Below, in pieces: positions 985 to 36,135 of a stretch of 64,000 nt of DNA. Position numbers and translations under genes: made by a program. Under the pieces are notes generated by a model. That model did not search any database, was not told the DNA's origin, and worked only from the letters and a program-made list of their open reading frames with translations. The DNA comes from Verrucomicrobiia bacterium (GTDB lineage Bacteria; Verrucomicrobiota; Verrucomicrobiia; Limisphaerales; UBA11358): positions 29,031 through 93,030 of the forward strand of contig JBAPQW010000041.1 in assembly GCA_049280815.1 (NCBI GenBank), in the 5' to 3' direction. Within the stretch, counting starts at the first letter, position 1; each line of letters begins with the position of its first letter.

Positions 985-1746
985 CTACTGGCCCAGATGT
1001 TCGAGGGCTTTGACCAGTGGCGCGCTGGAAACCTTGATCATGCCATCCAACGGACGGCTCATCTCCAGGATGAGAAAAATGGCGCCCGACACCGACAACG
1101 CGCAGATGAGCAGCACCAGGATCACCGTTGCATTGCGAGGGGCGAACAAGCCAAAGCTGGTGTGCAGCATGGTGAGCCAGAAAAGCAACACCACGAGAAA
1201 CGGCGTTGGCAGGACGTTTTGCGCCTGCTCAATCACCAGCCAGCGGGCTTGCGCCAGATCGCCGGCAATCTGCTGTGCCTGCAAAAGCAACTGGCGCTGG
1301 GAGTCGGTGGCCGGCTTGAGTTCGCGCATTTGCATCTGGACCGTCTCCATCCCGTTCATCCGCTCGAAACCGGCTAATCCTGACACTCCCGTTTTCACCC
1401 CTGGCCACATCATTTCGATCCCGGCGGCGACGACGTGCCGCAACTGTTCGCGGACGGCTTTGGGCTCGGGGTCATAATTCGCCAGCACGCGATCCAGGAG
1501 GATGATTTTCGCGCCGCCTTGGGTGATCTCGGCATTCATGGTGTCAAACGAGCTTTTGGCCGAACTCACGAGCAAGCCCAGGACCAGCGCCGACAGCGTG
1601 GCTATCATGCCGGCCCCGAGCTTCACGGTGTCCTTGGAATCGTTGCTCAAATGATGGCCGGGCAGCAGGGAGCGCAAACCCAGGCCGAGCAGCACCCCGC
1701 CAAAGATGCACCCCGCGCTGATCAAAGCCACGGTCAGTGAATTCAT
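985..1746 (-). CDS. DUF4239-like membrane protein
   Basis: 253 aa with N-terminal and C-terminal TM helices flanking a helical soluble region. The start ATG shares one nucleotide with the acs stop (TAATG). Confidence 0.55.
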   Translation of the reverse strand: MNSLTVALISAGCIFGGVLLGLGLRSLLPGHHLSNDSKDTVKLGAGMIATLSALVLGLLVSSAKSSFDTMNAEITQGGAKIILLDRVLANYDPEPKAVREQLRHVVAAGIEMMWPGVKTGVSGLAGFERMNGMETVQMQMRELKPATDSQRQLLLQAQQIAGDLAQARWLVIEQAQNVLPTPFLVVLLFWLTMLHTSFGLFAPRNATVILVLLICALSVSGAIFLILEMSRPLDGMIKVSSAPLVKALEHLGQ

Positions 1747-3728
1747 TACTGCTTCCCCTTCACCAGCGCCTCCACCACCTGCGAATCCGCCAGCGTCGAG
1801 ACGTCGCCGATCTGATCGGTCTGGTTCTCGGCAATCTTGCGCAAAATGCGGCGCATGATCTTGCCCGACCGCGTTTTCGGCAGTCCCGGCGCAAATTGGA
1901 TCTTGTCCGGCACTGCAATCGCCCCGATTTCCTTGCGGACGTGCGCCGCGAGTTCCCTTTTCAACTCCTCGCTTTCATGGATGCCGTCCTTGAGCGTCAC
2001 GAAGGCGTAGAGGGCCTGACCCTTGATGTCGTGCGGCATGGGCGCGACGGCGGCCTCGGCCACTTTCGGATGGCTCACCAGCGCGCTTTCCACCTCCGCC
2101 GTGCCGATGCGATGGCCGGACACATTCACCACGTCGTCGACGCGCCCGAGCAGCCAGTAATCGCCGTCGGCATCCACGCGGCAGCCGTCGCCGGTGAAAT
2201 ACATGTTCTTGAACGTGCAGAAATAGGTGTTCACGAAACGGTCATGATCGCCCCAGGTGGTGCGCATGATGCCGGGCCACGGTTTCTTGAGGCACAACTT
2301 GCCGCCTTCGTTTGGTGCGCATTCCGTGTTGTCGTCGCGCAACACCACCGGTTCAATGCCGAAGAACGGACGGCTGGCACTGCCGGGTTTCAACGTGTTG
2401 ACGCCCGGTAATGGCGTGATGAGATGTCCGCCGGTCTCCGTCTGCCACCAGGTATCCACAATCGGGCAACGGCCGAGGCCAATGTTCCGGTGATACCACA
2501 TCCACGCCTCGGGATTGATGGGTTCGCCAACCGTGCCGAGCACGCGCAGCGAGCTCAGGTTGTGTTTGGCCGGCCATTCGTCTCCCAGCCGGATGAGCGC
2601 GCGGATGGCCGTCGGCGCAGTGTAAAACGCGGTGACCTTGAATTTCTCGACAATTTTCCAGAGCCGTCCCGCGTCGGGGTATGTCGGGATGCCCTCGAAC
2701 ATCAGCGTCGTTCCGCCGTTGCACAGCGGGCCGTAAACGACGTAGCTGTGGCCCGTCACCCAGCCGATGTCGGCGGTGCAGAAATAGACGTCGTCGTCAT
2801 GGATGTCGAAGACGTATTTGTGCGTGAGCGCCGACCACAACAAATAGCCGGCGGTGCTGTGAACCACGCCCTTGGGTTTGCCGGTGGAACCGGACGTGTA
2901 CAGGATGAACAGGAAATCCTCGGCCTTCATCGGCTCGGGCGGACATTCAGGCGAGGCCTTTGCCATCAGGTCGTGATACCACACGTCGCGGCCGGCGACG
3001 ATGTTGCAGGCTTCACTGTTGCGCTGGACGACGACGACCTTCTCGATGGTCGGTGTTTTCTTCAACGCCTCGTCGGCGATGCTTTTGAGCGGGATGCTCT
3101 TGCCGCCGCGCAACGAGACGTTCGCGGTGATGAGCAGCTTGCAGGTGGAATCATTGATGCGGTCGCTGAGGGAATCCGCGCTGAATCCGCCAAACACGAC
3201 GGAATGGATCGCGCCGATGCGCGCGCAGGCGAGCAGGGCGACGGCGGCCTCGGGAATCATCGGCATGTAGATCGCCACCCGGTCGCCCTTTTTGATACCC
3301 AGCGATTTCAACCCGTTGGCGAACCGGCAAACCTTCGCGTGCAATTCCGCATAGGTGATTTGTTGCACGTCCTCTTCCGGCTCGCCCTGCCAGATGATGG
3401 CAATCTTGTCGCGCGTGGCGGTTTTGAGGTGGCGATCGAGACAATTGACCGTGACATTGAGCTGGCCGTCCTCGAACCAGGTGTGCTGGATTTTTCGGGC
3501 GTCGGTGTCCCAGGTATATTTGCCGGCGACGGTCGGCGGCTTGAACCAGTCGAGCGTGGCGGCCTGCTCCAGCCAGAAGGCATCCGGCTCGCGGAGGGAC
3601 CGCAGGTAAAGCGCGGTGAACTGGGCGGCATTGAGGTGCGCGCGTTTGAGGGTTTCGGGCGACGGCGGGAACGTGCGGTTCTCCTGCAACAGGGAATCCG
3701 TCGAAATGGTTTTATTTGGCATGGTCAT
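1746..3728 (-). CDS. acs: acetyl-CoA synthetase (AMP-forming)
   Basis: Motifs [20 protein letters not shown] and the C-terminal [13 protein letters not shown] are present. The start was moved to MTMPNKT (ATG at 3728) because the upstream 92 codons of the track ORF translate a REP-like repeat. Confidence 0.95.
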
Positions 3729-3880
3729 GGCGCGCCAGTCGCGTGAGGCAACGCCTATTACGCGGATTGGCTTCCCCGCATTTGGGCAAAACTGATTCCA
3801 TCTGTCAATTCCACTGATGCCGCCGAAGGTACTCAATTTGCCAGGGTCGGGATGCCGCGCTGGTCTGCGGCGTCCACGCC

Positions 3881-3968
3881 CGCGTGCAGCGGGCGGAACG
3901 GCCTTGCTTCCCTGTGCGCCGCTGAATGCGGCGCGGTCATCACCGCGCGATGACCCTGCCTCAAAATC
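3881..3968. repeat. REP-like triple-hairpin element, copy 1
   Basis: Three consecutive stem-loops: cgcccgc/gcgggcg, gcgccgc/gcggcgc and ggtcatc/gatgacc. The element closely matches 17855-17947. Confidence 0.7.
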
Positions 3969-4004
3969 TAAATGAGTCGCCACCGATGCCAAGGTCTGCC
4001 GCAC

Positions 4005-5511: not shown

Positions 5512-6273
5512 TTACCAGCTCCCTCCCGCGCCGCCGCCGCCGAAGCTGCCGCCGCCGCCTGAAAATCCTCCACCAGAAAAGCCGCCACCGCCCGAAAAAC
5601 CTCCGCCACCAGACGAACCGCCGCCCGACCAACCACCGCCCCAATATTGTATGCCGCCAGCCCGGTATCCCCGGCTGCGGAGAGACAGGATGATGACCAC
5701 CACGATGATCAGGAAAAAAAATGGGACGAGTCCATTGCCGCCATGATGGGCATAGGCCACATGGCCTTCCGCCACCGTCGTCCCGGTTCCCTTGTATTCG
5801 CCCTTCGTCGCCGCGAGGATGGCCTGCACCCCCGCCGTCAAACCGCCATCGAAATCACCGGCCTTGAAACGCGGGGTAATCTGCTCATCAATGATCCGCT
5901 TGCAAAGCGCGTCAGGCAGGACGCCCTCGAGTCCGTAGCCGACCTCCAGAAACATTTTATGGTCCTGCACGAAAACAAAAAGCACCGCCCCGTTGTTTTT
6001 ACCCTTTTGACCCGCCTGCCACGAACGCGCCACGCGCACGGTGTAATCTTCAATGGAGGAGTCCGACTGCATCTTCGGAAAAACGGCCACCACGATCTGA
6101 TCGGAGCTCTGGCGCTCGAAGTTTTCGAGGGTTTGGTTCAATTGCGCCACCGTGCCGGAGGAGACGACGTGGGCGTAGTCGTTGAAATAGGCTGCCGGCG
6201 CGGGCGGGATGACTTCATCCGCGAACAGCCGGAAGCCGAAAACCAGCGCCAGGATGATGCAGAAGTGTCGCAC
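5512..6273 (-). CDS. TPM-domain protein (YgcG-like) with TM helix and Gly-rich tail
   Basis: Signal peptide, NGAVLFVFVQDHKMFLEVGYGLEG, one TM helix, and the tail GGGWSGGGSSGGGGFSGGGGFSGGGFSGGGG. Confidence 0.8.
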   Translation of the reverse strand: MRHFCIILALVFGFRLFADEVIPPAPAAYFNDYAHVVSSGTVAQLNQTLENFERQSSDQIVVAVFPKMQSDSSIEDYTVRVARSWQAGQKGKNNGAVLFVFVQDHKMFLEVGYGLEGVLPDALCKRIIDEQITPRFKAGDFDGGLTAGVQAILAATKGEYKGTGTTVAEGHVAYAHHGGNGLVPFFFLIIVVVIILSLRSRGYRAGGIQYWGGGWSGGGSSGGGGFSGGGGFSGGGFSGGGGSFGGGGAGGSW

Positions 6274-7179: not shown

Positions 7180-8910
7180 CTAGTTTCTCAACCGGAAGAA
7201 CAGGGAACCGGTGGATTTGCTGAGCGTCACACTATTTGTCCCGCCGCGGCTGTTCACCGGCCCGGTGTAATCGCCCCAGTTGGTCGTCGTCAAATCAGCG
7301 TTGGTTTGCAGGACAAATCCCGCCGCGGAAGTCGGCCACGACACGACGACGTTGTCCAACACCGTGGGGTTGTCCGGCGGGTCGGCGAGCATGAGGAACA
7401 GGGTTGGCGGAGCGGAGGGCGATCCGGAACTGGTCAACACCGGATTGAAGGATACGGAATTGGATCCCGCCACCCCATCAATCATGTAGGTTCCCGTGAA
7501 ATCAAACGGCTGGTTGCCGAACTGTGAAGCGCAAACCAGGATGTTGCTTTGCTGGGTGGCGATGCCGTCGGCTGACGTGCCATCCGGCCACCAGGCGTTG
7601 CCGGAACCGCACGTGATGATTTCATTTACCAATTGAGTCGCCGGACCGTTGGTAACGTAAGTGTTCTGGCCGTTGGGACCGTAAATAATTCCCAGATAAA
7701 CGGGACTGGCGCTGCCGGTGTTCAAACCCGAGTACGCGTAAGGCACGGGCGAGTAGGTCCAATCCAGCGTGTTGCTGGGATCCGTCGAGTTCATAATGAA
7801 CGACAACTGCGCGATGGAGATAAGATTCGTGCCACCCTTGATATCCATACCAAACGTCAGCCGGTTGCCCAGTTCCTGGGCGAACGCCGGGCCAAAAGCG
7901 GTGCCGGGATCGGCGACTCCCATCCACGACGGGAAACTGGTCGCCAGATTGTTGGTTACCGAAATCGCATTCGTTATTTGCTGATAGAAGGTCGGCGACG
8001 ACGGATCGCCAGACGAGGAAAATCCGTTGAGGATGGCGGTGACGGCATTGGAAGCCCAGGCGTTCCAACTGGGTGAACCCCACCGGTTCGGTGCCAGGGC
8101 GGGAAAGACCGAGATGCTGATGCCTCCGGTTCCCAAGATCGGGCCGGCACTGGGCGCCACTGGATTGAGCGTTACGGAATTGGATCCCGACACCCCGTCA
8201 ATTGTGTAGGTTCCGGTGAAATCAAAGGGCTGGTCGCTAATCTGCGTAGCGGCGAGCACCAGGTTGCTTTGCTGGCTGGCAATGTCCCCAGACGTGTCAT
8301 ACACCGCCCAGGCATTGCCGGAGCCACGACCCACGAGCTCATTGACCAGTTGCGTCGCCGGGCCGCTGGTGACGTAGGTATTGGTGCCGCCGGGACCGTA
8401 GATGATGCCGACATAGGATTGACTATAGTTGTAGGAGCCCTCCGCGAAGGCAAAATCGAGCGTATTGCTCGGGTCGGTGGAATGCGCGCTGAAGGCCAAT
8501 TGCGAAATGGAGATCAGGTTGGTCCCGCCTTTGATGTCGATGCCGAACTGGAGCCGGTTGCCCAACTCCTGGGAAAAGCTGGCGCCGAAAACATTACCCG
8601 GATCGGCCAGGCCGTTCCACGACGGAAAACCGGTCACGAGGTCATTCGTTATTGAAATCACCCCAGGCGCCCATTGGTAATAGCTGGGTGACGACGGGTC
8701 GCCATACGACGAATAGCCATTGGCGATGGCGGTGGTGGCGTTGGAGACCCAGGCGTTCCAATTGGGCGAACCATAGACATTGGGTGCCAGGGCGGGAACG
8801 ACCGAGATGGTGATTCCCTGGGCCTGCACCGGGGAGAGGGAAGGTGTCGCAAGCACGGTCAATAAAATGCCGCCAACAATCAAACGACGGGCTGAAGTCA
8901 TCGGTAACAT
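7180..8910 (-). CDS. secreted protein P1: two tandem ~245-aa repeats of an unrecognised domain plus a FFRL-type C-terminal domain
   Basis: Signal peptide ending VQAQG. The internal duplication runs ITISVVPALAPNVYGSPNWNAW... and ISISVFPALAPNRWGSPSWNAW.... The C-terminus is VVVSWPTSAAGFVLQTNADLTTTNW...SLFFRLRN. Confidence 0.8.
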   Translation of the reverse strand: MLPMTSARRLIVGGILLTVLATPSLSPVQAQGITISVVPALAPNVYGSPNWNAWVSNATTAIANGYSSYGDPSSPSYYQWAPGVISITNDLVTGFPSWNGLADPGNVFGASFSQELGNRLQFGIDIKGGTNLISISQLAFSAHSTDPSNTLDFAFAEGSYNYSQSYVGIIYGPGGTNTYVTSGPATQLVNELVGRGSGNAWAVYDTSGDIASQQSNLVLAATQISDQPFDFTGTYTIDGVSGSNSVTLNPVAPSAGPILGTGGISISVFPALAPNRWGSPSWNAWASNAVTAILNGFSSSGDPSSPTFYQQITNAISVTNNLATSFPSWMGVADPGTAFGPAFAQELGNRLTFGMDIKGGTNLISIAQLSFIMNSTDPSNTLDWTYSPVPYAYSGLNTGSASPVYLGIIYGPNGQNTYVTNGPATQLVNEIITCGSGNAWWPDGTSADGIATQQSNILVCASQFGNQPFDFTGTYMIDGVAGSNSVSFNPVLTSSGSPSAPPTLFLMLADPPDNPTVLDNVVVSWPTSAAGFVLQTNADLTTTNWGDYTGPVNSRGGTNSVTLSKSTGSLFFRLRN

Positions 8911-8919
8911 CGTGCAAGA

Positions 8920-9012
8920 TATTTAACAGAAGCGGGCAAAAACGTAATGAATTAGGGACATATTGCGGGAATCGAGGGGCGAATTGCTCCCGGTGGGGGA
9001 CGGAGCGGGGCG
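8920..9012 (-). promoter_or_regulatory. conserved upstream element E1 (promoter/operator candidate)
   Basis: The plus-strand core TATTTAACAGAAGCGGGCAAAAACGTAATGAATTAGGGACATATTGCGGGAATCGAGGGG is shared with 12273-12366, 36042-36135 and 13274-13349. It lies directly 5' of the P1 start codon. Confidence 0.65.
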
Positions 9013-9090
9013 GTAAACTCCAGAGGCCAACTTCCCAAGGCCAAAGTGTTTTAGGATGGCGATCTTGTTTCAGCCTTTGGCCTTCAGTCT

Positions 9091-9633
9091 TCAGCCCCTT
9101 TGCGATGCCATCTGGATGAGCAAATCATTCAGTTCCTGCATGCGCGGCGGCTTGCCAACCACGGCGTCCACGGCCGAAACCGTTTCCCTGTCTTCTTTGA
9201 TCATCGAACCCGAGCCGGTCATCAGGATCACCGGCGTGCCCGGCGACTCCGCTTTGATGGCCCGGGCCACCTGATGGCCATCGATATCCGGCATGCCCAA
9301 ATCGGTGACGACGATTTCGTATGGCTGGTTATTCAGCCGGGCGGCGCGGAACAATTCCAGCCCCTGTTTTCCGCCGGAGGCAACCGTCACCCGATGCTCG
9401 AAATGCGTGAGGCAATCCTTCATAAACTCCCGAACCAGCGGGTCGTCATCAATGCAAAGGATGCACACGGAGCGCCTGGATCCGGCCTGAGGCGGGTCGC
9501 CCCGGCCGGCTTCCAAATCGATTTCCCGAACAGGAACATTGAATTGAACGCTGGTGTCGCTGCCAGGAGCACTTTCAATCTCGATCGAGCCGTCGTGGCG
9601 CTGGGCCGTGCCAAAGAGGGAAGATCCATTCAT
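9091..9633 (-). CDS. single-domain response-regulator receiver with a vestigial histidine-kinase ATPase C-terminus at its N-terminus
   Basis: The REC residues are intact (CIDDD, VVTDLGMPDIDG, ILMTGSG, VVGKPP). N-terminal residues GSIEIESAPGSDTSVQFNVPV match the end of HATPase_c (G-x-I-x-v-x-S-x-x-G-x-G-T-x-F-x-x-x-lP). Confidence 0.8.
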   Translation of the reverse strand: MNGSSLFGTAQRHDGSIEIESAPGSDTSVQFNVPVREIDLEAGRGDPPQAGSRRSVCILCIDDDPLVREFMKDCLTHFEHRVTVASGGKQGLELFRAARLNNQPYEIVVTDLGMPDIDGHQVARAIKAESPGTPVILMTGSGSMIKEDRETVSAVDAVVGKPPRMQELNDLLIQMASQRG

Positions 9634-9680: not shown

Positions 9681-12266
9681 TTAGGGGAGAGTGGCGCCGC
9701 GATAAAAACGGCTGGAATATTTTCCGGCGTTCGTATCGAGCAACGATAACAAGCCATTCACGTCGGCGACATTCGTGCTGATGGCCGTCCAGTGGATCAT
9801 GTCCGTTGAGGCCTGGAGCACGTAAGTCTGGCCGGGCGTCCCCGTCAGGCTGGCCGTCACGCACCCGGCTTGCGGCGGGGTGATGCAAATTTTGCAGGCC
9901 ACCGCGGCGGGGGCTGGATGGTTGACGACTTCAGTCAAACCATTGGTGCTGTTGTTAAAATTGCCGGCCGCATCCGCGTATTCCGCCGTGATGGTGAAAC
10001 TGCCGGCGCCGAGGGCCGAGCCGGACACGGTGGCACTCGCTTGACCGCCGGCGAGGGAAACCGGGCTGCCCAGATTCGTGCCGTTGTTCTTGAATTGCAC
10101 CGTGCCGGTCGGGGCGGCAGTGCTGGGAGACACCGGGTTCACCGTGGCCGTTAAGGTGATGTTCTGGTTGGTGAGCGCCGGGTTAAGCCCGGAAACCACG
10201 CCAACCGCGGTTCCCGCTTTCGTCACGGTGAGGGTGCCGTTCACGAAAACAAAACTGTAATTCACCGCACTCAGCGAGCCGAGGGCGGTCGTAATCGGAT
10301 AAGGACCACCCGCTACCGGGCTGCCGGCGATCGCCGTGGTGGTCAGGCCGGGATTGCCGGTGACGCCGCTGGTCGCGAGGGTCTCGCCACCGACCAAGCC
10401 GGAGTAACTGGCCGTCAAGGCCGGATTGGCCGCGCCAAAGGGACGAGACAAGCTGTCCGCCGTCACCGTCAGTGTGGCTTTGGCGATATTAGCGGTGGCG
10501 GTGGCAGTCGTGGAGGCCGGCGCGTAGTTGCCTGCATCGGTACCGGAGAGGGTGATGCCGCTCACGCTCACCGTCTTGCCGTTGGCCGCGATTTTATCCG
10601 CAAACGACGCGGCCGCATAGCTTTCACTGAGAACATCACCCGCCAGCCGGTTGTCCGAAAGCGTCACGGTGGCAGCGGTCGTACCATCATAAATCTTGTT
10701 CACGCCCACGGCGGTCACGGTCAGGCTGCGGGCAGTAATGCTGGCCGTGGCGATGGGCTGGGTCAGCTTGTAATTGGCGGCACTCGCGCCGGCGATCGTC
10801 AATCCGGAAACCGTCACGGTCTTGCCCGGGCCGACATTCTTGTTTGCGAATACGCCCTTGGCGCCGCTGGGGCTCAAAGTCATCGTGTCCCCGGCGATGA
10901 CCCCGACCAGCGTCGCGCCGCTGACGTTGAGGGTTGCGGTCGTCTTGGCGTCATAAACCTTGTTGCCGGCCGTGAGGCCCGAAACCGTCAGCGTAGCCGC
11001 CGTGATGTTGGCCGTGGTTGAAGCCGTGGTGGCCGCGAGCAGGTAGTTGCCGGAATCGATGCCCGAAATGGTGAGGCCCTTCACGTTCACTAGCTTGCCA
11101 TTGCCCACAGTCTTGTTGGTAAAAGACGCGGTCGCATAGCTCACGGTGAGGACATCGCCCGACACCCGATTGTCCGTGAACGTTACGGTCGCGTTGGTCG
11201 TTCCGTCGTAAGCCTTGTTCACGCCCTTGGCCGTCACGGTCAGGCTGCGCCTGGTGATGCTGGCCGTGGACGCGGGCTGAGTCAGGTTGTAATTGCCGGC
11301 GCTGGTGCCGGTGATCGTCAACCCGGAAACCGTCACGGTCTTGCCCGTGCCGATGTTCTTGTCGGCGAAGGTGCCTTTGGCACCGCTGACGCCCAAGGCC
11401 ACCGTGTCCCCGGCGAGAACCCCAACCAGAGCCGCGCCGTTGGTCTTGAGGGTCGCGGTGGTCTTGGCGTCGTAAACCTTGTTGCTGGCCGTAATGCCCC
11501 AAACCGTCAGCGTGGCCTTGTTGATCGTCTGTGACAGGGCGCCGGAAGTGCTGCCGGTGAAATTGGTGTTGCCGCCGTAAACCGCGGCGATGGAATGGAC
11601 CGTGGTCGCGGCGGAAATCTTGTTGGTGCTGAAGGAGGCCTGTCCCGATCCATTCAATGTTCCTGAACCCAGGATGGTGCTTCCATCCTTGAAGGTCACC
11701 GTCCCGGAAGGCATCCCGGTGGCGGGAGCGACGGGACTGACCTTTGCGGTGAAGGTCACGGATTGGCCGTACACCAGCGGGTTGATTGACGAGGTGAGGG
11801 TGACGGTGGTCTTGCCCTGGCTGACGGTGAAAACGCTGCTCGTGGCACCCTTCAGGCCGCTGGCGCTGGCCAACAACGCATTCCCGACACCGGCCTGGAT
11901 GATGTCCAGATTGGTGAACGTGGCCTTGCCGCTGACGTCGGTGTTCATGCTGGTGGTTCCCATCAGTCCGGCACCCTTGTTCAATGCCAGTAAAATCGTC
12001 GCACCGCTTTGCGGCACATTGGTTCCGTTTTGGGCCTTGAGCTGCACCACGACGCCGGTCATCTTTGCTCCAACTGTCGTCGTCACCGGTTGCGCCGCGA
12101 ATGCCAGTTTGTAGGCTGCCGATGGGGCGCCGGAAACCGTCATGGCCGTGCTGACGGTCGCCAGCAAGGCACATTCAAAGAACCGCATCCATGACAGTTT
12201 CATAAGCTGTTTCCGCTCAACCCCAAAAACTTCGCGCTGGGTCATCCGACTGATTGATTGATTCAT
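9681..12266 (-). CDS. secreted surface protein P2: Ig-like (Big) domains, MBG/YDG repeats and a FYR-type C-terminal domain
   Basis: Repeated motifs KVYDAKTTATL, NKAYDGTTNATVT and GNYNLTQP are typical of MBG-domain adhesin-like proteins. The signal peptide starts at the second Met (MKLSWMRFF, ATG 12203), which may be the true start. Confidence 0.85.
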   Translation of the reverse strand: MNQSISRMTQREVFGVERKQLMKLSWMRFFECALLATVSTAMTVSGAPSAAYKLAFAAQPVTTTVGAKMTGVVVQLKAQNGTNVPQSGATILLALNKGAGLMGTTSMNTDVSGKATFTNLDIIQAGVGNALLASASGLKGATSSVFTVSQGKTTVTLTSSINPLVYGQSVTFTAKVSPVAPATGMPSGTVTFKDGSTILGSGTLNGSGQASFSTNKISAATTVHSIAAVYGGNTNFTGSTSGALSQTINKATLTVWGITASNKVYDAKTTATLKTNGAALVGVLAGDTVALGVSGAKGTFADKNIGTGKTVTVSGLTITGTSAGNYNLTQPASTASITRRSLTVTAKGVNKAYDGTTNATVTFTDNRVSGDVLTVSYATASFTNKTVGNGKLVNVKGLTISGIDSGNYLLAATTASTTANITAATLTVSGLTAGNKVYDAKTTATLNVSGATLVGVIAGDTMTLSPSGAKGVFANKNVGPGKTVTVSGLTIAGASAANYKLTQPIATASITARSLTVTAVGVNKIYDGTTAATVTLSDNRLAGDVLSESYAAASFADKIAANGKTVSVSGITLSGTDAGNYAPASTTATATANIAKATLTVTADSLSRPFGAANPALTASYSGLVGGETLATSGVTGNPGLTTTAIAGSPVAGGPYPITTALGSLSAVNYSFVFVNGTLTVTKAGTAVGVVSGLNPALTNQNITLTATVNPVSPSTAAPTGTVQFKNNGTNLGSPVSLAGGQASATVSGSALGAGSFTITAEYADAAGNFNNSTNGLTEVVNHPAPAAVACKICITPPQAGCVTASLTGTPGQTYVLQASTDMIHWTAISTNVADVNGLLSLLDTNAGKYSSRFYRGATLP

Positions 12267-12272
12267 GCAAGC

Positions 12273-12366
12273 TATTTAACAGAAGTGCGCAAAAACGTAA
12301 TGAATTAGGGACATATTGCAGGATTTGAGGGGTGGATTGCGTCGGTTGAGGGACGGAGCGAGGCGG
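12273..12366 (-). promoter_or_regulatory. conserved upstream element E2
   Basis: Same core as E1, with few substitutions by eye. It ends 6 nt before the ATG at 12266. Confidence 0.65.
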
Positions 12367-12448: not shown

Positions 12449-12958
12449 TTATGCCGGCTTGGCCATCCGCAGGAGCAGGTCGTTCAGTTCCTGGATGCAC
12501 GGCGGTTTGCCGACGACGATGTCCACCGCCGACGCCATGTTTCCGCCTTCCTTCATCATGGTGCCCCCTCCCGTCATCATGATGATGGGTGTGTTGGGGG
12601 ATTCGGTCTTGATCGTCCGGGCCACCTGGTAACCATCCATATCCGGCATGCCCAAATCGGTTATGACCGCATCGTAAGGCTCGCTTTTCAGCATGGCGGT
12701 GATGAACAATTCCACCCCGCGCCTTCCGCCGGAGGCAACCTTTACCCGATGCTCATAGTGCGCGAGACAATCTTTCATGATTTCCAGGATCTGCTCGTCG
12801 TCATCGATGCACAGGATGTGCAGGGACCGCTTCGGTGTGGCGGGAACCTGGGTTCCGCCTGCCGGGATGGTTTGCGGCCCAAGCCGGGAAAGCTCCCGCG
12901 GATCCGGCAGAGTATCCCGCAGCAGCTCCGAATAGACGAATACATGAGAATTGTTCAT
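12449..12958 (-). CDS. single-domain response-regulator receiver, paralog of 9091-9633
   Basis: CIDDDEQILEIMKDCLAHYEHRVKVASGG and VITDLGMPDMDGYQVARTIK align along the whole REC domain with 9091-9633. Both proteins start MN-x-S. Confidence 0.8.
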   Translation of the reverse strand: MNNSHVFVYSELLRDTLPDPRELSRLGPQTIPAGGTQVPATPKRSLHILCIDDDEQILEIMKDCLAHYEHRVKVASGGRRGVELFITAMLKSEPYDAVITDLGMPDMDGYQVARTIKTESPNTPIIMMTGGGTMMKEGGNMASAVDIVVGKPPCIQELNDLLLRMAKPA

Positions 12959-12994: not shown

Positions 12995-13201
12995 TCAGGG
13001 GGTAATACCCCGATGGAAATGATTGGAATGGTTCTTCGCGACCGGTTCACCAAACGGGAACCGCCCTTTGGCGTCGGTCAGCCGGTTGTTGGTTTTGAAT
13101 GCCACCGCGAAAACGACGTTGCTTTGCGCCCGCGCGGACCGGGCTGGACGGCCAGCCGTCAACGGGCCATCGACAAAAAACCACATCCTCGACTTTTTCA
13201 T
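12995..13201 (-). pseudogene. collapsed surface-protein cassette (N-terminus P3-like, last codons P2-like)
   Basis: MKKSRMWFF...AQSNVVFAVAFKTNNR parallels the P3 N-terminus MKKSWMWLV...AQNNVVVYAAEYNQSTNR. The C-terminal FHRGITP* parallels P2 FYRGATLP*. The signal-peptide-like region contains D and R residues. A good SD (AAAGGAG) precedes the ATG. Confidence 0.5.
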
Positions 13202-13273
13202 CGCTTGCTCCTTTAAATCCCCCGACAGTTCTCAACAGGTTGTCCATCCAACTGACTTGCTCAACTGTAAGTT

Positions 13274-13349
13274 TGTTTAACACAAACTGACAAAAAACTA
13301 ATAAATAAGGGACAAGTTGGGGGATTAGCGGGGTGAATTGCGCCCGGGG
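13274..13349 (-). promoter_or_regulatory. conserved upstream element E4 (most diverged copy)
   Basis: TGTTTAACACAAACTGACAAAAAACTAATAAATAAGGGACAAGTTGGGGGATTAGCGGGGTGAATTGCGCC aligns with E1-E3. Confidence 0.5.
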
Positions 13350-13567
13350 AGGGATGGAATTACATCGTGCGAGACGAATTCTTTCCGCCGCCCGCCGCGA
13401 GAATCTGAACGCCCTGGACGCGTCCCATTCGACGTCAGCCTTCAGGCGGTTTGGCGCCTCTGGGGCAACAAAAGGGGCGCCCTCAATCACAGTAACACGA
13501 ATGCCACGAGCAGCTATCAGTAACTGGAATTCACTCCAGCCTTGTATTTCAGGCGGCTTGCGGGATA

Positions 13568-14829: not shown

Positions 14830-17604
14830 TCAATATACGTATTCGGCGGTGTAGTCGCGGCCGTCAGCCCCGGCGGTCAGCTTGAACCCGACCTGCTTGC
14901 TGATGTGGTGCATGGCGTGGTTGTCGGCCATGATTTCCGCGGAGAGACGCGTGAGTTTCTCGTCCCGCCCGATCGCCACCAGGCGTTTGAGCAGCTCGGC
15001 GCCCAGTCCCTTTTTCTGCCAGTGATCGTTCACGAGTAACGCAAACTCGCCTTCGTTCAGGCCGTGTTCCTTACTTAACCGGCCCACACCCAGGATTTCC
15101 CGCTGCTTGTTCTTGGGATCCTTGCGTTCGGCCACCAGTGCAATCTCGCGGTCATAATCGTTGAAACAGATGCGCGTCAGCCGTTCGTGCGCGATGCGCT
15201 GGTCGAGTTTCAACTGGGTGAAATAACGGTGATACACGCTTTCCTCGGAGAGGGTCTCGTGAAACTTCACCAGCAACGGCTCGTCCTCGGGCTGGATGGG
15301 CCGGATGGTCACCGACGTGCCGTCCTTCATTTTCCATGGCGATGAGTATTGGGTCGGGCAGGGACGGATGGCGAGCCGGGGCAGTTGGTCTTCGGTCGTC
15401 TTCGGGTCGTGCAGGATGACCCGGGCATCGAGCGCGACGAGATCATCGGCGGAGGCGAACATCGGGTTGATGTCGATTTCCTTGATCCAGCGTTGCTCGG
15501 CGACGAGCTGGCTGAAGCCGACCATCAATTTCTCGAGCGCGGCGAGGTCCACCGACTTGCGGCCGCGGACGCCCTTGAGCGCGTGATAAATCTTGGTCGT
15601 CTCCATCATGCGCCGGGCGAGCGTGGTGTTCAACGGCGGCAGCGCCAGCGCCTTGTCCTTGAACACTTCCACCAACTGGCCGCCCATGCCGAACAGGAGC
15701 ACCGGCCCGAATTGCGGGTCAATGCTGCTGCCCAGGATGATTTCGTACCCTTCGCTCAGCTTGATCATTTTCTGGACGGTGACGCCCTGGAAATGCTCGG
15801 CGCCGGCCTTTTCGGTGCAGGCGGTCTTGATGGCCTTGAACGCGCGCTTCACATCGGCCTCGTCCTTGAGATTTAATTGCACACCGCCCACGTCGGTCTT
15901 GTGGGTGATGGTTTCGGAGTAAAGTTTGAGCACGATCGGATAACCAATTTCCTTGGCGTGTTTGACCGCTTCGGCCTCGCTCTTCGCCACCTTGGTGATG
16001 ACAGTCGGGATGTTGTAACAGGCGAGCAGTTCCTTGGATTCGGATTCGGTGAAGATGGTGCGACCGGTTTTCCGAACCGATTCAATCAAGGTTGCGGCCT
16101 TGGCCCGGCCGGATTTGAGATCGTCGGCATCGGCGGAAGGCACGGGGGTTTCGTACAGGGCGCGGAGATTGTCGGCGTAACGCCACATGGACGTGAACAC
16201 GCGCGCGGCCGTGTCGGGATAGGGAAAGGTCGGGATGCCGGCGCGATTCAGGATGGCCTCGCCTTCGGCCACGTCCCGGCCGCCCATCCAGCTGGCGAGC
16301 ACCGGCTTGCCTTCGATGTGGCCGAACGCCTTCAATTTTTCCGCGGTGTCGGTGCATTCGGTCATGGATTGCGGCGTCAAAATGACGAGCAAGCCGTCGC
16401 TGTTCGGATCGCGGCCTGCGATTTCCAGCGTCTTGGCGTAGGCTTCCGCACTGGCGTCGCCCAGCACGTCGATGGGGTTGTTGCGTGACCAGGAGGGCGG
16501 CAGAAACTTGTCCAGTTCCGCAATGGTGCCCTTGGAAACCTCCGCCAGCGCGCCGCCGGTGGTGAGCAGCGCGTCGGTGGCCAGCACGCCGGGCCCGCCG
16601 GCGTTGGAGATCATGGTCAGGCGGTTGCCCTTGGGACGCGGCTGCCGGCCCAGCACTTCGGACATGTAAAACAAATCGGAGATGTTGTTCACGCGCAACA
16701 CGCCGCAGCGCTTGAACGCGGCTTCCAGCACGTCGTCGCTGCCGGTCAGCGAACCGGTGTGCGACGCGGCGGCCTTGGCGGCGCCCTCGGTGCGGCCGGG
16801 TTTGATGACGATGATCGGCTTGGTCAACGCCACTTCACGGGCGGCGGACAGAAACGAGCGCGCGTCGCCGATGGTTTCCATGTAAATGACGATGCTCTTG
16901 GTCTTCGGATCGTCGCCGAGGTAGTAAATCAAGTCGCCCCAGCCGACATCGAGCATGGAGCCGAGCGAGGCGAAACAGCTGAAGCCTACATTTTCCTTGA
17001 GGCTCCAGTCGAGCACGGCACAGCAGAGCGCGCCGCTCTGGCTCAGGAACGCCACGTCGCCGGGCTGGGCGATGGTGGCGGCAAAACTGGCGTTGAACCC
17101 GATGTTCGGCATCTGGACGCCGAGACAGTTGGGACCGACGATGCGCATGCCGGCGGCGCGGGCGTCGGCGAGGATTTGTTGTTCCAGCTTCACGCCTTCG
17201 GGGCCGGTTTCCTTGAAACCCGCGGAAATGATGATGACGCCGCCAACCCCGGCCTTGGCGCAATCCTTGATCAGCCCGGGCACGGTCTTCGCCGGCGTGC
17301 AGATGACCGCCAGGTCCACCTTCTCCGGCACCGCGCCGATGCTGGGATAGGCCTTGACGCACAGCACGGAGGAACGCTTCGGATTGATGGGATAGACCAC
17401 GCCGCTGAAACCGCCGCGGCCGAGGCCTTCAAACAGCATCCGCCCGACGCTGCGGGGCTTGTCCGTGGCGCCGATGACGGCGACGACCTTCGGGGCGCAG
17501 ATGGGATCCAGCGGATGCTTGCGCGTCTGGTGCAGGATGTCGTGGGCGGGCTCGAGGCGTTTGATTTCAGGAGTGGAAGGGGTCATGATTTTGGTGGATT
17601 CCAT
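14830..17604 (-). CDS. bifunctional ADP-forming acetyl-CoA synthetase-like / GNAT N-acetyltransferase (Pat/YfiQ-like protein lysine acetyltransferase)
   Basis: 924 aa. It has an N-terminal CoA-binding domain ([14 protein letters not shown]), succinyl-CoA-synthetase-like and ATP-grasp regions, and a C-terminal GNAT domain ([16 protein letters not shown]). Confidence 0.85.
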
Positions 17605-17854
17605 AAAATGTTTTTTGCAGATAGCTGTCGGTTGACCGCCTGCGCGTCACGATGCAAACCGGACAGGGCAACCGTCCGGCACGGGCAGGTTTTGCGGTGT
17701 TTCGAGCATAAATGTTCTACAGCCTCAAACTCCTATTTTTCAAGGTGTTCTACTCACCAAACCTTGTTGAAGACTATACAAATTTTGCGGAGCCAAACCA
17801 ACCTTGAAAAAATGAGTGGGTTGTAACGGCGAGGGCAGGAACGCCGCGCTTCGG

Positions 17855-17947
17855 CCCGCCTGCAGTGGGCGGAACAGAGTCGGAGGAAGCACTTTGCCCC
17901 GCTCAACGCGGCGCGGTCATCGCCGCGCGATGACCCTGCCTCAAATC
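17855..17947. repeat. REP-like triple-hairpin element, copy 2
   Basis: gcggcgcggtcatcgccgcgcgatgaccctgcctcaaatc differs from copy 1 over this stretch by one substitution and one missing A in the terminal A-run. The outer hairpin is kept with changed bases (ccgcc/ggcgg). Confidence 0.7.
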
Positions 17948-32058: not shown

Positions 32059-35000
32059 TTATTGCACCTGCACCCGGAAGAAACAATGTGGAGTGCCGCT
32101 GACACTGTTCGTCACAGAAACCATCGTGCCGGTCCCCGCCACAGACCCACCGACCGGGGCCCAGGTGGCAACCGGGAGGTTGGTGGAACACTCGAGTTGA
32201 TAGGTCTGATTTGAAAACGTCTGCCAGCTGACGACGAATTGTTGTGTTCCATTGACGTTGACTGTGGCACCGGTCAGTTGCGGGGCCGCGATCACCTTAA
32301 GGCTTCCACTCACATATTGAATCGTGTAGTTGGCAGCTCCCGCACCGCTGGCGGTGATCGGATAATTACCGGCGCCACTCGCTGTGGTTGCCGTCGTATT
32401 CAATACCACTGGGGGCGATAATATGCTGGTGTCGTCGCCACTGGCAAAACCGTTGTAACTGGCGGTCAGCGGCGGATTGGGCATCCCGTAAATCTTGGTC
32501 TTGGCGTCGGCTGCCACTGTCAATATCGCCTTGCCGATCACCAAGGTGTTGGTGGCGCTGCCCTGGTAATTGACATCATTGATCGTGCCGATGACCGTGT
32601 AGCTGCCGGCGCTGACGGGAACCGTGGCTGAACCATTGTACGTAAAGCTCACCGCCAAACCGTTCGGGGTTGTCGTCGCCGCCGCCGGCTTAAAGGTGCC
32701 ATCATAGGTCTGGCTGAGACCGCTGAGCGAAATCGAGCTGGCAGCCTTGTTGATCACCAGCATGTTGGTGGCGCTGCCCTGGTAATTGGCGTCATTGATG
32801 GTGCCGGTCACGGTGTAGCTGCCGGCATTGGTGGGAACCGTGGCCGAACCGTTGTAGGTAAATGTCACCGCCAACCCGCCTGGAGTTGTTGTCGCCGTTG
32901 CTGGCTCGGCTGAACCATTGTAAGTCTGGCTCAAGCTGCCCAGCACGATTGAACCCGAAGCCTTGATGATAACGCCCGCGGTGCTGGACACAATACTGAC
33001 AGTGTAATTATTGCCGCTGTTGCCGTCGTTGATCGCGTAAGAGCTGATACTCAGGGTCTTGCCTGCGCCCGCGTCCGGCGTGTCGTAAGTCTCGGCCAGG
33101 CCGCTCACGGTGTCGCTGCCCTGCAGACCGCTGGTTGTCGGAGTCGCCGAGGCAATGGTCGACCCGTCATAAATCTTGGTGTTCGCCACCGCCGTAATGG
33201 TCAAAGTTGCTGCTGTAATGTCCGCCGCCAGGCCCGTTGGCTGAGTCAGTGTGTAATTGCCGGCATCCGTCCCGGTGATGGCATATCCGCCCGCGGAAAC
33301 CGGAATGCCCGTCCCCACGTTCGGATTGGCAAACGCGGCGCTCACGTCGCCCGTGAACAGGCTCACATCATCACCACTCACCCCTCCGTTCAAAGTTGCC
33401 GTGCCGTTCAATTGCGCATTCGTTGTTCCATCATACACTTTGGCGGCTGCCACCACGCCACTCACGGTCAATCCGGCGGTGGCGACGTTCGCCGTCACGT
33501 TCGTTGGATCAGCCAGGGTGTAATTGGCCGCCGCCGCGCCGCCCAGCGCCAGCCCCGACACCGTCACTGGCTTGTTCGTGTTGACATTTTTGTCCGCAAA
33601 ATATGCCACAGCATTGCTGGTGACCAGGGCCACGTCGTCTCCGTTCAGCACGCCCGCCAAACCGGCATTGCTCGCATCCAGCGTGGCATTCGTCGTGCCG
33701 TCATACACCTTGTCCAAGGCCAGCAGATTCGTTACGGTCAGCGCCAGCGCGCTCACCGTGATGTTCACGGAACCGCTCGCACCGGCCAGCGTGTAGTTGC
33801 CCGCCGCCGCGCCGCCCAACGTCAGCGCACCAAAGGACGTGATTGCCTCTGACCCGGCATTCGCGCTGGCCAGCGTGCCGCTGCCCGAGGCCACCGTCAC
33901 GTTGTCGCTGCCAATCTTGTTCGCCACCGACAAAATTTCCGCCGCCACCGTCGTTGTTCCGTCATAAGACCGGCTGCCCGTCAAATTTACCGGCAGTGCG
34001 TTGATCGTCAGCGCCGTCGCATTCCCGGCCGCCTGGACGAACGTGTAGTTGCCATTGTTGGCCGTCAATCCGGCACCATTGATCGCATAGCTACCCACGC
34101 CGCTGGACGAAGTCGCCGCCGGCGTGAACGTCAGCGTGCCCGTCGTCGCATTGCCTTGGTTGTCCGTTCCTAAAAATCCAGTCACCGAACCGCTCACACC
34201 AGGTACCACCGATCCGTAAGTCGTGCTCGCAGGGTTCGCAGTGTACATCAGTGTTGCCGCGTTAATGACGAGCGAGTTGGTGGCACTGCCCTGGTAATTG
34301 GCGTCATTGATGGTGCCGACCACGGTGTAGCTGCCGGCGCTGGTGGGAACGGTAACCGAACCGTTGTAGGTAAATGTCACTGCCAAACCGCTCGGAGTCG
34401 TGGTCGCCGTCGCCGGCTCGGCAGAACCACTGTAGGTCTGGCTGAGGCTGCCCAACACGATTGAGCTGGAAGCCTTGCTGATGACGAGCGAGTTGGTGGC
34501 GCTGCCCTGGTAATTGGCGTCATTGATGGTGCCAACCACCGTGTAGCTGCCGGCGCTGGTGGGAACAGTCGCCGAACCGTTGTAGGTAAATGTCACTGCC
34601 AAACCGCTCGGAGTCGTGGTCGCCGTCGCCGGCTCGGCAGAACCACTGTAGGTCTGGCTGAGGCTGCCCAACACGATTGAGCTGGAAGCTTTGCTGATGA
34701 CGAGCGAGTTGGTGGCGCTGCCCTGGTAATTGGCGTCATTGATGGTGCCAACCACGGTGTAGCTGCCGGCGCTGGTGGGAACGGTAACCGAACCGTTGTA
34801 GGTAAATGTCACTGCCAGCCCGCTTGGGATCGTGGTCGCCGTCGCTGCTTTGGCCGTGCCATCATACGTCTGGCTCAGACTTCCAAGGGTTACGGTGGCG
34901 CTACCTTTGCTGACCGTCAAAGTCGCGTTGTTGGTCACGGTTCCCATGGCCCCGCTCACGATGACGCCATAGGTCGCCGCGTCGCTGGTGCCCACGTTGG

Positions 35001-35976: not shown

Positions 35977-36041
35977 ATCTTTTTCCTGTTTGACCCAAGT
36001 TTTCGCACCCGGTTTCCAATCCAATTGATTCTTCACCTCGT

Positions 36042-36135
36042 TATTTAACAGAAACGGCGCAAAACGTAATGGATTAGGGACACAATGCGGGATTTGAGGG
36101 GTGAATCGCGCCTGGTAAGGGGCGGAATTCGGAGG
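36042..36135 (-). promoter_or_regulatory. conserved upstream element E3
   Basis: TATTTAACAGAAACGGCGCAAAACGTAATGGATTAGGGACACAATGCGGGATTTGAGGGGTGAATCGCGCC lies between the LytTR regulator stop and P3. Confidence 0.65.

Follow-up and report, generated by a model that had tools for sequence, protein, structure and literature searches.

The 64-kb stretch of DNA analysed here (the window) carries four copies of a conserved element. We consider this element to be a LytTR-dependent promoter-operator for surface-protein and signalling genes, with three boxes that would serve the neighbouring REC+LytTR regulator. On the sequence evidence, we assign this reading a probability of about 0.68. The best explanation for each copy is that it acts as DNA; a functional RNA, a gene for a peptide and a mobile repeat are all less plausible. 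The element would add a further case to an established type of control region and does not reveal a new mechanism.

A conserved element of about 95 nt present four times had been claimed in an earlier note on this DNA, and both an exact core and a profile HMM bear this out. The core TGTCCCTNATNNATTANNTTTT occurs without mismatch four times in the window, always on the minus strand (8939-8960, 12292-12313, 13293-13314 and 36061-36082), compared to 0.01 matches expected from shuffles. The profile HMM, built from 22 copies, also yielded four copies in the window, all on the minus strand (8920-9015, 12273-12364, 13274-13366 and 36041-36136) and with scores of 76-91 bits, and no matches between them. 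When nhmmer --max was run on the window and all related loci, the HMM scores were bimodal, and no intermediate matches pointing to additional diverged copies were obtained in this set. The copies, E1 to E4, and their predicted parts are as follows.

8919-9015, minus strand: E1, putative promoter-operator element 5' of P1 (nhmmer 85.4 bits)
E1 boxes, minus strand: R1 8994-9001 GTCCCCCA; R2 8973-8980 GCCCCTCG; R3 8952-8959 GTCCCTAA
E1 putative core promoter, minus strand: -35-like ATTACG 8943-8948; TG-extended -10-like TGTTAAATA 8920-8928; predicted +1 at ~8913
12272-12364, minus strand: E2, element 5' of P2 (nhmmer 81.0 bits)
E2 boxes, minus strand: R1 12347-12354 GTCCCTCA; R2 12326-12333 ACCCCTCA; R3 12305-12312 GTCCCTAA; TGTTAAATA at 12273-12281
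13273-13366, minus strand: E4, the most diverged copy (nhmmer 75.8 bits)
E4 boxes, minus strand: R1 13348-13355 ATCCCTCC; R2 13327-13334 ACCCCGCT; R3 13306-13313 GTCCCTTA; TGTTAAACA at 13274-13282
36041-36136, minus strand: E3, element flanked by the LytTR regulator gene (5') and P3 (3') (nhmmer 90.8 bits)
E3 boxes, minus strand: R1 36116-36123 GCCCCTTA; R2 36095-36102 ACCCCTCA; R3 36074-36081 GTCCCTAA
E3 putative core promoter, minus strand: ATTACG 36065-36070; TGTTAAATA 36042-36050

Ungapped comparison over 90 nt resulted in identities of 0.84 (E1/E2), 0.77 (E1/E3) and 0.76 (E2/E3), in line with the earlier estimate that these three copies differ at about one position in five. The values for E4 against the others are 0.70-0.73. 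E1 and E2 are parts of a larger tandem module, in which each copy is preceded on its 5' side by a receiver gene (RR1 and RR2, 75% identical over 300 nt).

Each copy contains three 8-bp boxes in the arrangement GCCCCTCA-N13-ACCCCTCA-N13-GTCCCT(A/T)A, with a period of exactly 21 bp in all copies. The box consensus is [G/A][C/T]CCCT[C/A/T]A, and GCAAT-like spacer bases precede each box. Self-similarity reaches 0.41-0.42 at lag 21 and 0.35-0.36 at lag 42, compared to a background of 0.27; a strong sub-period of 10-11 bp was not found in this analysis. TRF detected no tandem repeat in the window copies because the three units are too diverged. At the related locus L086 (1817-1909), the 21-nt unit is present in tandem in 4.4 copies with a 98% match; boxes number up to about six in L086. 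Formation of a G-quadruplex or i-motif by the C-runs was considered and is not favoured, given that the loop between runs extends up to 17 nt and that the boxes are the simpler account of the C-runs.

Conservation, measured as information content, stays high between about -95 and TAAATA and drops abruptly right after TGTTAAATA. A gap of 3 nt separates the end of the R3 box from the -35-like ATTACG, which is not conserved, and the box starts 34 nt before TAAATA, the transcription start site itself being only predicted. TAAATA matches the sigma-70 -10 hexamer at three of six positions and lacks the final T, ATTACG also matches at three of six, and a TG is found at the extended -10 position. The element falls short of the canonical sigma-70 definition (at least four of six matches per hexamer and a -10 that has both A2 and T6), and a scan for the sigma-70 consensus calls no promoter there. 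Inspection by eye for sigma-54, ECF and sigma-28 patterns revealed neither GG/GC at -24/-12 nor AAC/CGT at ECF spacing. Since ATTACG is lost in distant copies, TAAATA is a poor -10 and the consensus scan is silent, the promoter is one that we infer. The earlier note had proposed an activator-dependent promoter with the C-rich 60 nt as the predicted activator site. This proposal gains support, as conservation stops at TGTTAAATA, the C-rich part consists of the three 21-bp-phased boxes, and the spacing from boxes to TGTTAAA is kept where the intervening sequence has diverged.

Genes downstream of the element were called with an ATG-only ORF finder in a non-redundant set of 75 copies from MAGs and metagenome contigs. 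An ORF could be called for 68 of them and was co-oriented with the element in every case. With few exceptions, these ORFs belong to four families, namely P1-like, P2-like and P3/P3N-like secreted proteins and REC-only receivers, and within each gene class the distance from element to start codon is fixed. The genes concerned in the window are:

7180-8910, minus strand: P1, secreted protein of 576 aa whose N-terminus resembles a signal peptide
9091-9633, minus strand: RR1, 180-aa receiver-only protein between P2 and E1 (Pfam Response_reg 3.6e-19)
9681-12203, minus strand: P2, 840-aa adhesin-like secreted protein (Big_3_5, YDG and MBG_2 domains)
12449-12958, minus strand: RR2, 169-aa receiver-only protein, paralog of RR1, located 3' of E4 and the decayed ORF (Pfam Response_reg 4.6e-19)
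12995-13201, minus strand: decayed P3N-like remnant ORF of 68 aa (MKKSRMW...), 3' of E4 and followed by RR2
32059-35976, minus strand: P3, 1305-aa adhesin-like secreted protein (MBG_3, YDG, MBG_2 and Ig domains)

Within P1, a segment of about 231 aa is duplicated, and neither Pfam nor NCBIfam gives a match for the protein; its orthologs, with 80-88% identity, follow about 14 of the non-redundant element copies. Over its first ~45 residues, RR1 can be aligned with hybrid histidine kinases, namely with the C-terminal end of their kinase domain, and its NCBIfam alignments to hybrid kinases begin at residues 5-13. RR1-like genes lie directly 3' of the element in relatives, as do RR2-like genes in L050 and L086. 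The assumption that every copy precedes a surface-protein gene holds for E1-E3, but not for E4, which precedes the decayed 68-aa remnant. The cargo genes are repeat-rich. They had been described as unrelated except at their termini, which needs correction: both P2 and P3 contain YDG and MBG_2 domains and share DNA repeats.

For the start codons, the earlier note had left open whether the mRNAs are leaderless or whether translation starts further downstream, behind a conserved leader. The downstream start applies to P2, P3 and the short ORF, which share the conserved beginning MK(K/L)S(W/R)M about 64-71 nt 3' of the element. P2 starts with MKLSWM at 12203, in an ORF that is open up to 12266, and its orthologs in L084 and L077 start with MKKSW/MSKSR. 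P3 starts with MKKSWMW 64 nt after E3. A leaderless or nearly leaderless mRNA fits P1, since in every ortholog the ATG follows TAAATA at the same distance of 10 nt; three of the orthologs have no other ATG. The ~65-nt leader that follows the element in the P2/P3 class is moderately conserved. A structured RNA element in this leader was rejected because the alignment of 39 MKKSWM-class leaders gave a consensus energy of 0.0 and two of these copies lack 32 nt.

About 19 copies were found in about 15 MAGs of Limisphaerales/Verrucomicrobiota, and 69 metagenome contigs carry the element. The gene arrangements around it are syntenic and stable across species. Between close species, the identity of the element is 0.89, modestly above the synonymous-site identity of 0.82. 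Part of the striking similarity is thus a mere consequence of how closely related the genomes are. Three distant orthologous loci, L096, L100 and L101, with regulator identities of 0.80, 0.76 and 0.74 (global alignment), show identities at 4-fold sites of 0.64, 0.69 and 0.47, and the identity of the element is higher in each. Only the boxes and TGTTAAA survive at these loci; the spacings of 21 bp and 30 nt are unchanged, while the spacers and the '-35' have diverged. The GCAAT spacers are more conserved than a model with 9-bp boxes needs.

The candidate regulator is encoded next to E3:

36182-36949, minus strand: response regulator with REC and LytTR domains, 255 aa when counted from the ATG (Pfam LytTR 3.7e-25, Response_reg 3.5e-23)

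Its best NCBIfam match is BtsR (3e-45, 154.5 bits compared to an equivalog cut-off of 246), and a terminator-like hairpin (36152-36165) separates the gene from E3. A LytTR ortholog is located 30-38 nt 5' of the element in 16 of the 75 non-redundant copies, and the order LytTR-element-P3, kept in 16 of the 75, was also seen in eight MAG loci other than the window. The three distant orthologous loci also have a LytTR gene directly 5' of the element. L097 retains a single vestigial box just 3' of the regulator stop codon, and LytTR orthologs with 66-75% identity in L098, L099 and L102/L103 have no element downstream. No histidine kinase gene was found beside the regulator, either in the window or in the orthologous loci, and the profile HMM gave no element 5' of the regulator gene itself (upstream of 36949). 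The upstream neighbours of the element copies include no other recurring DNA-binding regulator, and the LytTR regulator already singled out in the earlier note thus remains the likely candidate, as the only one recurrently adjacent. Apart from LytTR and RR1/RR2, the genes on the 5' side are a mixed set, in which the real-looking ones resemble housekeeping enzymes by eye; several of the upstream ORFs are probably spurious.

LytTR regulators bind direct repeats of 9-11 nt that are 11-13 nt apart, and their sites have no universal consensus (PMC4847170). A weak -35 box follows the repeats after 4-11 bp, and the -10 is often extended (PMC6193735; PMC4227749). The element shows both the repeat arrangement expected of such operators, with three boxes at a period of 21 bp (PMC4847170, PMC6193735), and the expected linkage, with a LytTR-domain regulator gene directly 5' of E3 and of 16 of the 75 non-redundant copies. 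The number of boxes counts against a LytTR operator, being three or more compared to the usual two. The older general consensus for LytTR sites, [TA][AC][CA]GTTN[AG][TG], is not matched by the boxes; GTT-containing stretches are present (TACGTTTT and TCTGTTAAA), but they are 16 and not 21 nt apart, and TACGTTTT is not conserved. As LytTR sites share no common consensus (PMC4847170), this mismatch does not exclude the element from LytTR operators.

The E. coli YehT/BtsR site has been given as an oligonucleotide of the form GCCGCTCA..ACCGCTTA-N13-ACCACTCA (PMC4847170). This operator, in the promoter of btsT (yjiY), has the same 8-bp direct-repeat boxes, 13-bp gaps and 21-bp period. Its boxes GCCGCTCA, ACCGCTTA and ACCACTCA are nearly the same as GCCCCTCA, ACCCCTCA and GTCCCT(A/T)A here, and a third upstream box is common to both. 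Our reading of the E. coli sequence places a putative -10-like TAACTC 34 nt from where the proximal box begins, which equals the offset of TAAATA. Kraxenberger et al. reportedly described in 2012 the BtsR motif ACC[G/A]CT[C/T]A with a 13-bp spacer. Compared to this motif, the spacer of the element is exactly 13 and the matches amount to 7/8 for R2 (ACCCCTCA) and 6/8 for both R1 and R3; position 4 of the box is C in the element, whereas it is G or A in the BtsR motif. There are clear differences between the systems. With 32% identity to E. coli BtsR and a score below the cut-off, the window regulator is not a BtsR equivalog. In E. coli, btsS and btsR form an operon, whereas the window regulator has no adjacent LytS-type kinase. 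The target of BtsR is a pyruvate transporter of the CstA family, while the element precedes genes for secreted adhesin-like and REC-only proteins, with several target promoters per genome compared to one for BtsR.

The LytTR-regulated promoters of Gram-positive quorum and bacteriocin systems, those of AgrA (P2/P3), ComE, PlnC/D and HdrR/BrsR, have paired direct repeats with a period of ~21 bp before a poor -35, an arrangement that the element would share. Their core promoters are weak or oddly spaced, often with an extended -10, hence their dependence on an activator (PMC4227749, PMC6193735, PMC4847170). The Gram-positive sites fit the older consensus and normally consist of two repeats, whereas the element is C-rich and has three boxes, or about six in L086. 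Most of these systems activate their own operons, unlike the window regulator, whose gene has no element copy on its 5' side. Iteron-like and other phased direct-repeat operators share with the element tandem units of ~21-22 bp on one face of the helix in variable copy number. Unlike iterons, the copies are chromosomal, dispersed at the 5' ends of genes and followed at constant distance by a -10-like box; neither replication genes nor signs of a plasmid were found around them.

In the mechanism that we propose, the upstream two thirds of the element would consist of three direct-repeat boxes at predicted positions of about -88/-81, -67/-60 and -46/-39, their 21-bp spacing corresponding to two helical turns. 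The last third would be a weak core promoter that lacks a conserved -35, has the -10-like TGTTAAATA with its TG extension and is predicted to start transcription about 7 nt further on. Once phosphorylated, the REC+LytTR regulator would occupy the boxes cooperatively, on the same side of the helix, and bring in RNA polymerase; we infer activation rather than repression. In this way, a small regulon might be co-activated that comprises three secreted adhesin-like families (P1, P2 and P3/P3N) and the receiver-only RR1/RR2. By acting as phosphate sinks, these receivers could exert feedback on the phosphorelay.

To our knowledge, transcriptional control in the uncultured Limisphaerales, which are abundant in peat and bog soils, is almost wholly undescribed, and our literature search found no paper linking LytTR regulators to regulation in Verrucomicrobia. 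The element offers a concrete regulon to test, with an orphan LytTR regulator, a defined operator and adhesin-like and receiver-only targets. Three [G/A][C/T]CCCT[C/A/T]A boxes with a 21-bp period and TGTTAAATA behind them provide a search model for annotating Limisphaerales genomes, and the element would be a natural example of a multi-box LytTR operator with variable copy number. It also hints that the BtsR-type box and the 8+13 geometry are very old. A more far-reaching interpretation is unlikely, although we put it forward tentatively: the copy-number-variable operator, the orphan BtsR-like regulator and the receiver 'decoys' derived from hybrid kinases would form an undescribed tunable switch, by which Limisphaerales of peat soil control giant adhesins in response to one nutrient-type signal, and BtsR-like DNA specificity would be conserved from Proteobacteria to Verrucomicrobiota.

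Among the alternatives, the one that survives best also treats the element as a promoter-operator, but has the boxes bound by another transcription factor encoded elsewhere, the LytTR gene being a mere conserved neighbour of P3. In 59 of the 75 copies there is no adjoining LytTR gene, the boxes are off the classical LytTR consensus, and the regulator seemingly does not control its own gene, given the missing element upstream of 36949. Phasing of ~21-22 bp can also result from other factors, e.g. tandem dimers of winged-helix regulators. However, no alternative DNA-binding regulator recurs near the element, the strong sub-period of 10-11 bp is absent, and the element is found behind LytTR orthologs down to 72-80% identity, with the vestigial box behind one of them. 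Box sequence and 8+13 layout are close to the site of BtsR, the best family match of the regulator. We therefore regard a different factor as improbable.

It is considerably less probable that the element is part of a 'promoter plus signal-peptide' cassette, kept alike by gene conversion or recombination and serving as a homology patch for cargo shuffling. Such a cassette is compatible with promoter function. E1 and E2 share features such as CGCTCCGTCCC and AATATG, which are missing from their orthologs in other genomes, the element of the P2/P3/P3N class is accompanied by the leader and the MKKSWM signal peptide, and the cargo genes are rich in repeats. These points are opposed by the stable synteny across species and by the distant orthologs, which keep boxes and -10 and lose the spacers, as predicted by selection on binding sites and not by homogenisation. 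In addition, the window copies are all direct, and recombination between them would therefore delete genes.

A role of the transcribed element as RNA, be it a cis-regulatory leader, riboswitch-like or a small RNA from either strand, is very improbable. Its length, contiguity and high conservation would suit such a role, as would the moderately conserved leader of ~65 nt in the P2/P3 class, but conservation stops at the -10-like box and does not extend into the transcript, and the leader itself lacks both a consensus structure and, in two copies, 32 nt. A check for RNA structure suggested in the earlier note yielded no consensus structure on either strand: RNAalifold on 22 copies gave consensus folds of -0.4 kcal/mol (sense) and -5.8 kcal/mol (antisense) with no compensatory pairs. 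Shuffle z-scores of single sequences were near zero (-0.9 to +1.4), and Rfam gave no match at the gathering threshold or at E<=1. An RNA element was rejected on these grounds.

We give hardly any credence to a micro-peptide of the form (N)TG-S-L-I-H/Y-Y-V-...-F-C-stop that ends at the TAA inside TGTTAAATA. In most copies this frame runs for about 30 codons without a stop, an NTG codon is retained whatever the variable base before TGTCCC, and some variable sites are synonymous (CTA/CTT, ATT/ATC/ATA, GTT/GTA). However, a conserved start codon is absent, as is a ribosome-binding site, and NTG includes CTG and TTG; residues 7-10 change non-conservatively, and E4 has an in-frame TAG. The entropy per codon position (0.57/0.33/0.53) is not coding-like, the apparent wobble sites are N positions of the search pattern used, and 50 conserved upstream bases are left unexplained. 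With the other five frames stopped in most copies, a coding function was rejected.

A generic intergenic repeat (REP or MITE) is just as implausible in spite of the multiple copies per genome, since inverted termini and palindromic structure are absent, the window has only four copies in 64 kb, none stands outside gene 5' regions in ~0.6 Mb of related loci, and the random spread over gene types and orientations named in the earlier note as the sign of such a repeat is not seen in the window, the related loci or the 68 called ORFs, which are all co-oriented, fall into four families and start at a fixed distance within each class.

The element repeated in the window looks like a LytTR (BtsR-like) direct-repeat operator joined to a weak promoter, both of them predicted. 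Four copies of its core, TGTCCCTNATNNATTANNTTTT, are present in the window, all of them minus-strand (8939-8960, 12292-12313, 13293-13314 and 36061-36082), compared to 0.01 matches expected from shuffles. A profile HMM built from 22 copies matched only 8920-9015 (E1), 12273-12364 (E2), 13274-13366 (E4) and 36041-36136 (E3), at 76-91 bits, with no intermediate-scoring match elsewhere in the window. Ungapped identities over 90 nt are 0.84 (E1/E2), 0.77 (E1/E3), 0.76 (E2/E3) and 0.70-0.73 (E4), while a four-way alignment and a repeat finder place the extent of similarity at ~95-140 nt. The coordinates and sequence in the earlier note agree with these results and are correct. The copies lie in two arrays, listed in minus-strand order:

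First array: E4, remnant ORF, RR2, E2, P2, RR1, E1, P1
12995-13201, minus: 68-aa remnant ORF, after E4
12449-12958, minus: RR2, receiver-only protein
9681-12203, minus: P2, secreted protein, after E2
9091-9633, minus: RR1, receiver-only protein, between P2 and E1
7180-8910, minus: P1, secreted protein, after E1
Second array: LytTR regulator, hairpin, E3, P3
36182-36949, minus: LytTR regulator with REC and LytTR domains
36152-36165, minus: terminator-like hairpin between regulator and E3
32059-35976, minus: P3, secreted protein, after E3

P2 and P3 contain Big_3_5, YDG, MBG and Ig domains; for P1, Pfam and NCBIfam gave no match. P1 (7180-8910) is an internal tandem duplication with a unit of ~231 aa, its DNA repeats being 693-720 nt apart and 70-79% identical. 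Inside P3 (32520-34979), a 216-nt (72-aa) unit is present in five tandem copies with 64-79% identity, which correspond to the MBG_3 domain repeats. A C-terminal segment of ~70 aa, ending in F(F/Y)R-type residues and without family match, is alike in all three proteins. RR1 and RR2 are paralogs (75% identity across 300 nt). From residue 5-13, RR1 aligns to the kinase-domain end and receiver of hybrid histidine kinases, and, in alignments to the ArcB, TorS and EspC models, the first ~45 residues of the receiver-only proteins fall on the ATPase domain's C-terminal end. Judged from these alignments, the receiver-only proteins (RR1, RR2 and those of L017, L026 and L082) have the appearance of hybrid-kinase C-terminal fragments that are conserved and expressed separately; their genes have an element copy of their own in some relatives. 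Around the arrays, the window has what look like ordinary housekeeping genes of a chromosome; a LytS-type kinase was not found among them.

Scanning species-representative genomes with a 20-base degenerate pattern yielded ~19 true copies, all with an identical 39-nt core spacing, and a few clearly unrelated chance matches with other spacings. The true copies belong to 15 MAGs, each carrying a Verrucomicrobiota, Verrucomicrobiae or Limisphaerales label; SPRUCE, bog and palsa are among their isolate names. A separate pattern anchored on boxes R2 and R3 gave 69 loci in a metagenome scan. Across all loci, nhmmer found 99 strong matches, corresponding to 75 non-redundant copies. With an ATG-only ORF finder, a co-oriented ORF starting within ~160 nt downstream was called for 68 of the 75 and none for the other 7. 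These ORFs fall into defined classes: P3 or its short version P3N (MKKSWM-like start, leader of 61-71 nt), P1 (ATG at a fixed 10 nt past the -10-like TAAATA), P2, and RR1/RR2-like REC-only proteins (~12 copies), apart from a few exceptions such as the unmatched ORF of 196 aa at L092. The random distribution by gene type and orientation that the earlier note named as evidence against its reading was not observed. Its statement that the element always lies 5' of a surface-protein gene needs widening, since the downstream set also includes receivers. At L008/L084, the L008 contig, labelled as an 'uncultured Bifidobacteriaceae' MAG, is probably mis-binned: the P2 ortholog on it, at 69-78% identity, is typical of Limisphaerales loci, as is its element copy.

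When the element is compared with itself, similarity shows a sharp maximum at a 21-nt offset (0.41-0.42 versus a background of 0.27) and another peak at 42 nt (0.35-0.36). Set out in 21-nt rows, the consensus is CGGAATTCCGCCCCTCACCGG, GCGCAATTCACCCCTCAAATC, CCGCAATGTGTCCCTTATTCA, TTACGTTTTAGCCCGTTTCTG and TTAAATAA..., for which three 8-bp boxes, each followed by 13 nt, are the cleanest description. In 66 non-redundant copies the boxes are R1 GCCCCTCA, R2 ACCCCTCA and R3 GTCCCT(A/T)A, with a conserved GCAAT in the spacers. On the minus strand of L086 (1817-1909), the 21-nt unit GCAATTCGCCCCTCACCGGGA is present in 4.4 tandem copies (98% match), preceding R2- and R3-like units and a GGTTAAAAAT box; this array identifies the 21-bp unit as the element's evolutionary module. 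The whole variant spans L086 1761-1914 (minus strand), with a related copy at L069 5183-5273; the cargo at L086 differs, with a signal-peptide-like ORF of 43 aa first and an ORF of 144 aa after it.

In 16 of the 75 non-redundant copies, and likewise in the window, the element begins 30-38 nt past the end of a REC+LytTR gene. In the other copies, RR1/RR2 or a mixed set of genes lie upstream, without any further DNA-binding regulator that recurs among the 75. LytTR sites are direct repeats of 9-11 nt, 11-13 nt apart, without universal consensus (PMC4847170), typically 4-11 bp upstream of a weak -35 and often with an extended -10 (PMC6193735); promoters that depend on AgrA are inherently poor (PMC4227749). 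The top NCBIfam match of the regulator is BtsR (3e-45, below the equivalog cut-off), and its identity to E. coli BtsR is 32%. An oligo of the E. coli YehT/BtsR site (PMC4847170) includes GCCGCTCA, ACCGCTTA and ACCACTCA, spaced 20 and 21 nt apart; the site lies upstream of btsT. Like the element, it has the 8+13 geometry and a nearly identical box. The BtsR motif published by Kraxenberger et al. in 2012 is reportedly ACC[G/A]CT[C/T]A with a 13-bp spacer. In the E. coli btsT promoter (L105 401-500), there are by our own reading 34 nt from the start of the proximal BtsR box to a -10-like TAACTC, matching the R3-to-TAAATA distance of the window element. Element and regulator do not belong to a BtsS/BtsR system, because the regulator falls short of equivalog status, has no adjacent kinase gene and has different targets. 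The element also differs from textbook LytTR sites in its three phased boxes (more in L086), its well-conserved spacers, its several dispersed targets and the lack of a copy upstream of the regulator's own gene (HMM scan of the window). We found no paper on this element or on LytTR regulation in Verrucomicrobia, and consider the result a solid, testable regulon prediction of moderate interest.

Recent common ancestry accounts for part of the striking similarity: among the 15 closest LytTR-linked loci, element identity (0.889) exceeds that of 4-fold degenerate sites (0.819) by a small margin. The real evidence of constraint is patterned divergence at longer range. Identity of regulator orthologs declines gradually from 92% to 65%, and contigs of several of them (L096-L103) were compared. 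A P3-like gene follows the element at L096 (50.5 bits; regulator identity 0.80) and L100 (76.7 bits; 0.76), while L101 has a 31.5-bit copy before an 800-aa protein (0.74 in global alignment, 72% by BLASTP). Element identity is higher than that of 4-fold sites each time (0.76 vs 0.64, 0.78 vs 0.69 and 0.59 vs 0.47, respectively). The diverged copies keep CACCCC / CCACCCCT / ATGTCCC.AA and TTTCTGTTAAA at exactly unchanged 21-nt and 30-nt spacings; spacers and the '-35' ATTACG are replaced. At L097, a lone vestigial GCGCAATCCACCCCTCAATCAC box unit (5763-5790) immediately follows the stop codon of the LytTR ortholog (74% identity), with a convergent ABC-transporter operon in place of P3. The element is absent at L098, L099 and L102/L103.

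The element is DNA-level, neither RNA nor coding. Information content is high from ~95 nt upstream through TAAATA and at background level straight after. RNAalifold gave essentially no structure (-0.4 kcal/mol sense, -5.8 antisense) and no compensatory pairs on either strand, single-copy folding z-scores lie between -0.9 and +1.4, and Rfam has no match even at E<=1. The 65-nt leader of the MKKSWM class is without consensus fold, and 32 nt of it are missing in two copies. As for coding, five of six frames are closed and the sixth, open for ~30 codons, lacks a conserved start (codon-position entropy 0.57/0.33/0.53).

If TAAATA is the -10 hexamer, we infer a start ~7 nt downstream, e.g. near 8913 for E1. 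The boxes would then lie at ~-88/-81, -67/-60 and -46/-39, which would place the proximal one next to or across part of the -35 region, the usual position of an activator compensating for a missing -35. A TG two bases before the hexamer would fit an extended -10; a sigma-70 consensus scan called no promoter at the element. The P1 mRNA is probably leaderless or nearly so, since its start codon would fall at ~+4 and the MTQITSARR start is the only ATG in three P1 orthologs. The presence of REC-only genes in the predicted regulon would point to feedback acting on the phosphorelay.

A second conserved non-coding block of ~95 nt was observed on the minus strand at 3870-3965 and 17850-17945 (54-nt core, 91% identical), upstream of an AMP-forming acetyl-CoA synthetase (ORF 1746-4004) and a Pat-like CoA-binding/ATP-grasp/GNAT protein (14830-17604). 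It has no Rfam match. As RNA it forms two adjacent GC-rich hairpins (MFE -30.9 kcal/mol, z -3.6), with a third after them in both copies, and may be a regulatory element common to acetate/acetyl-CoA genes.
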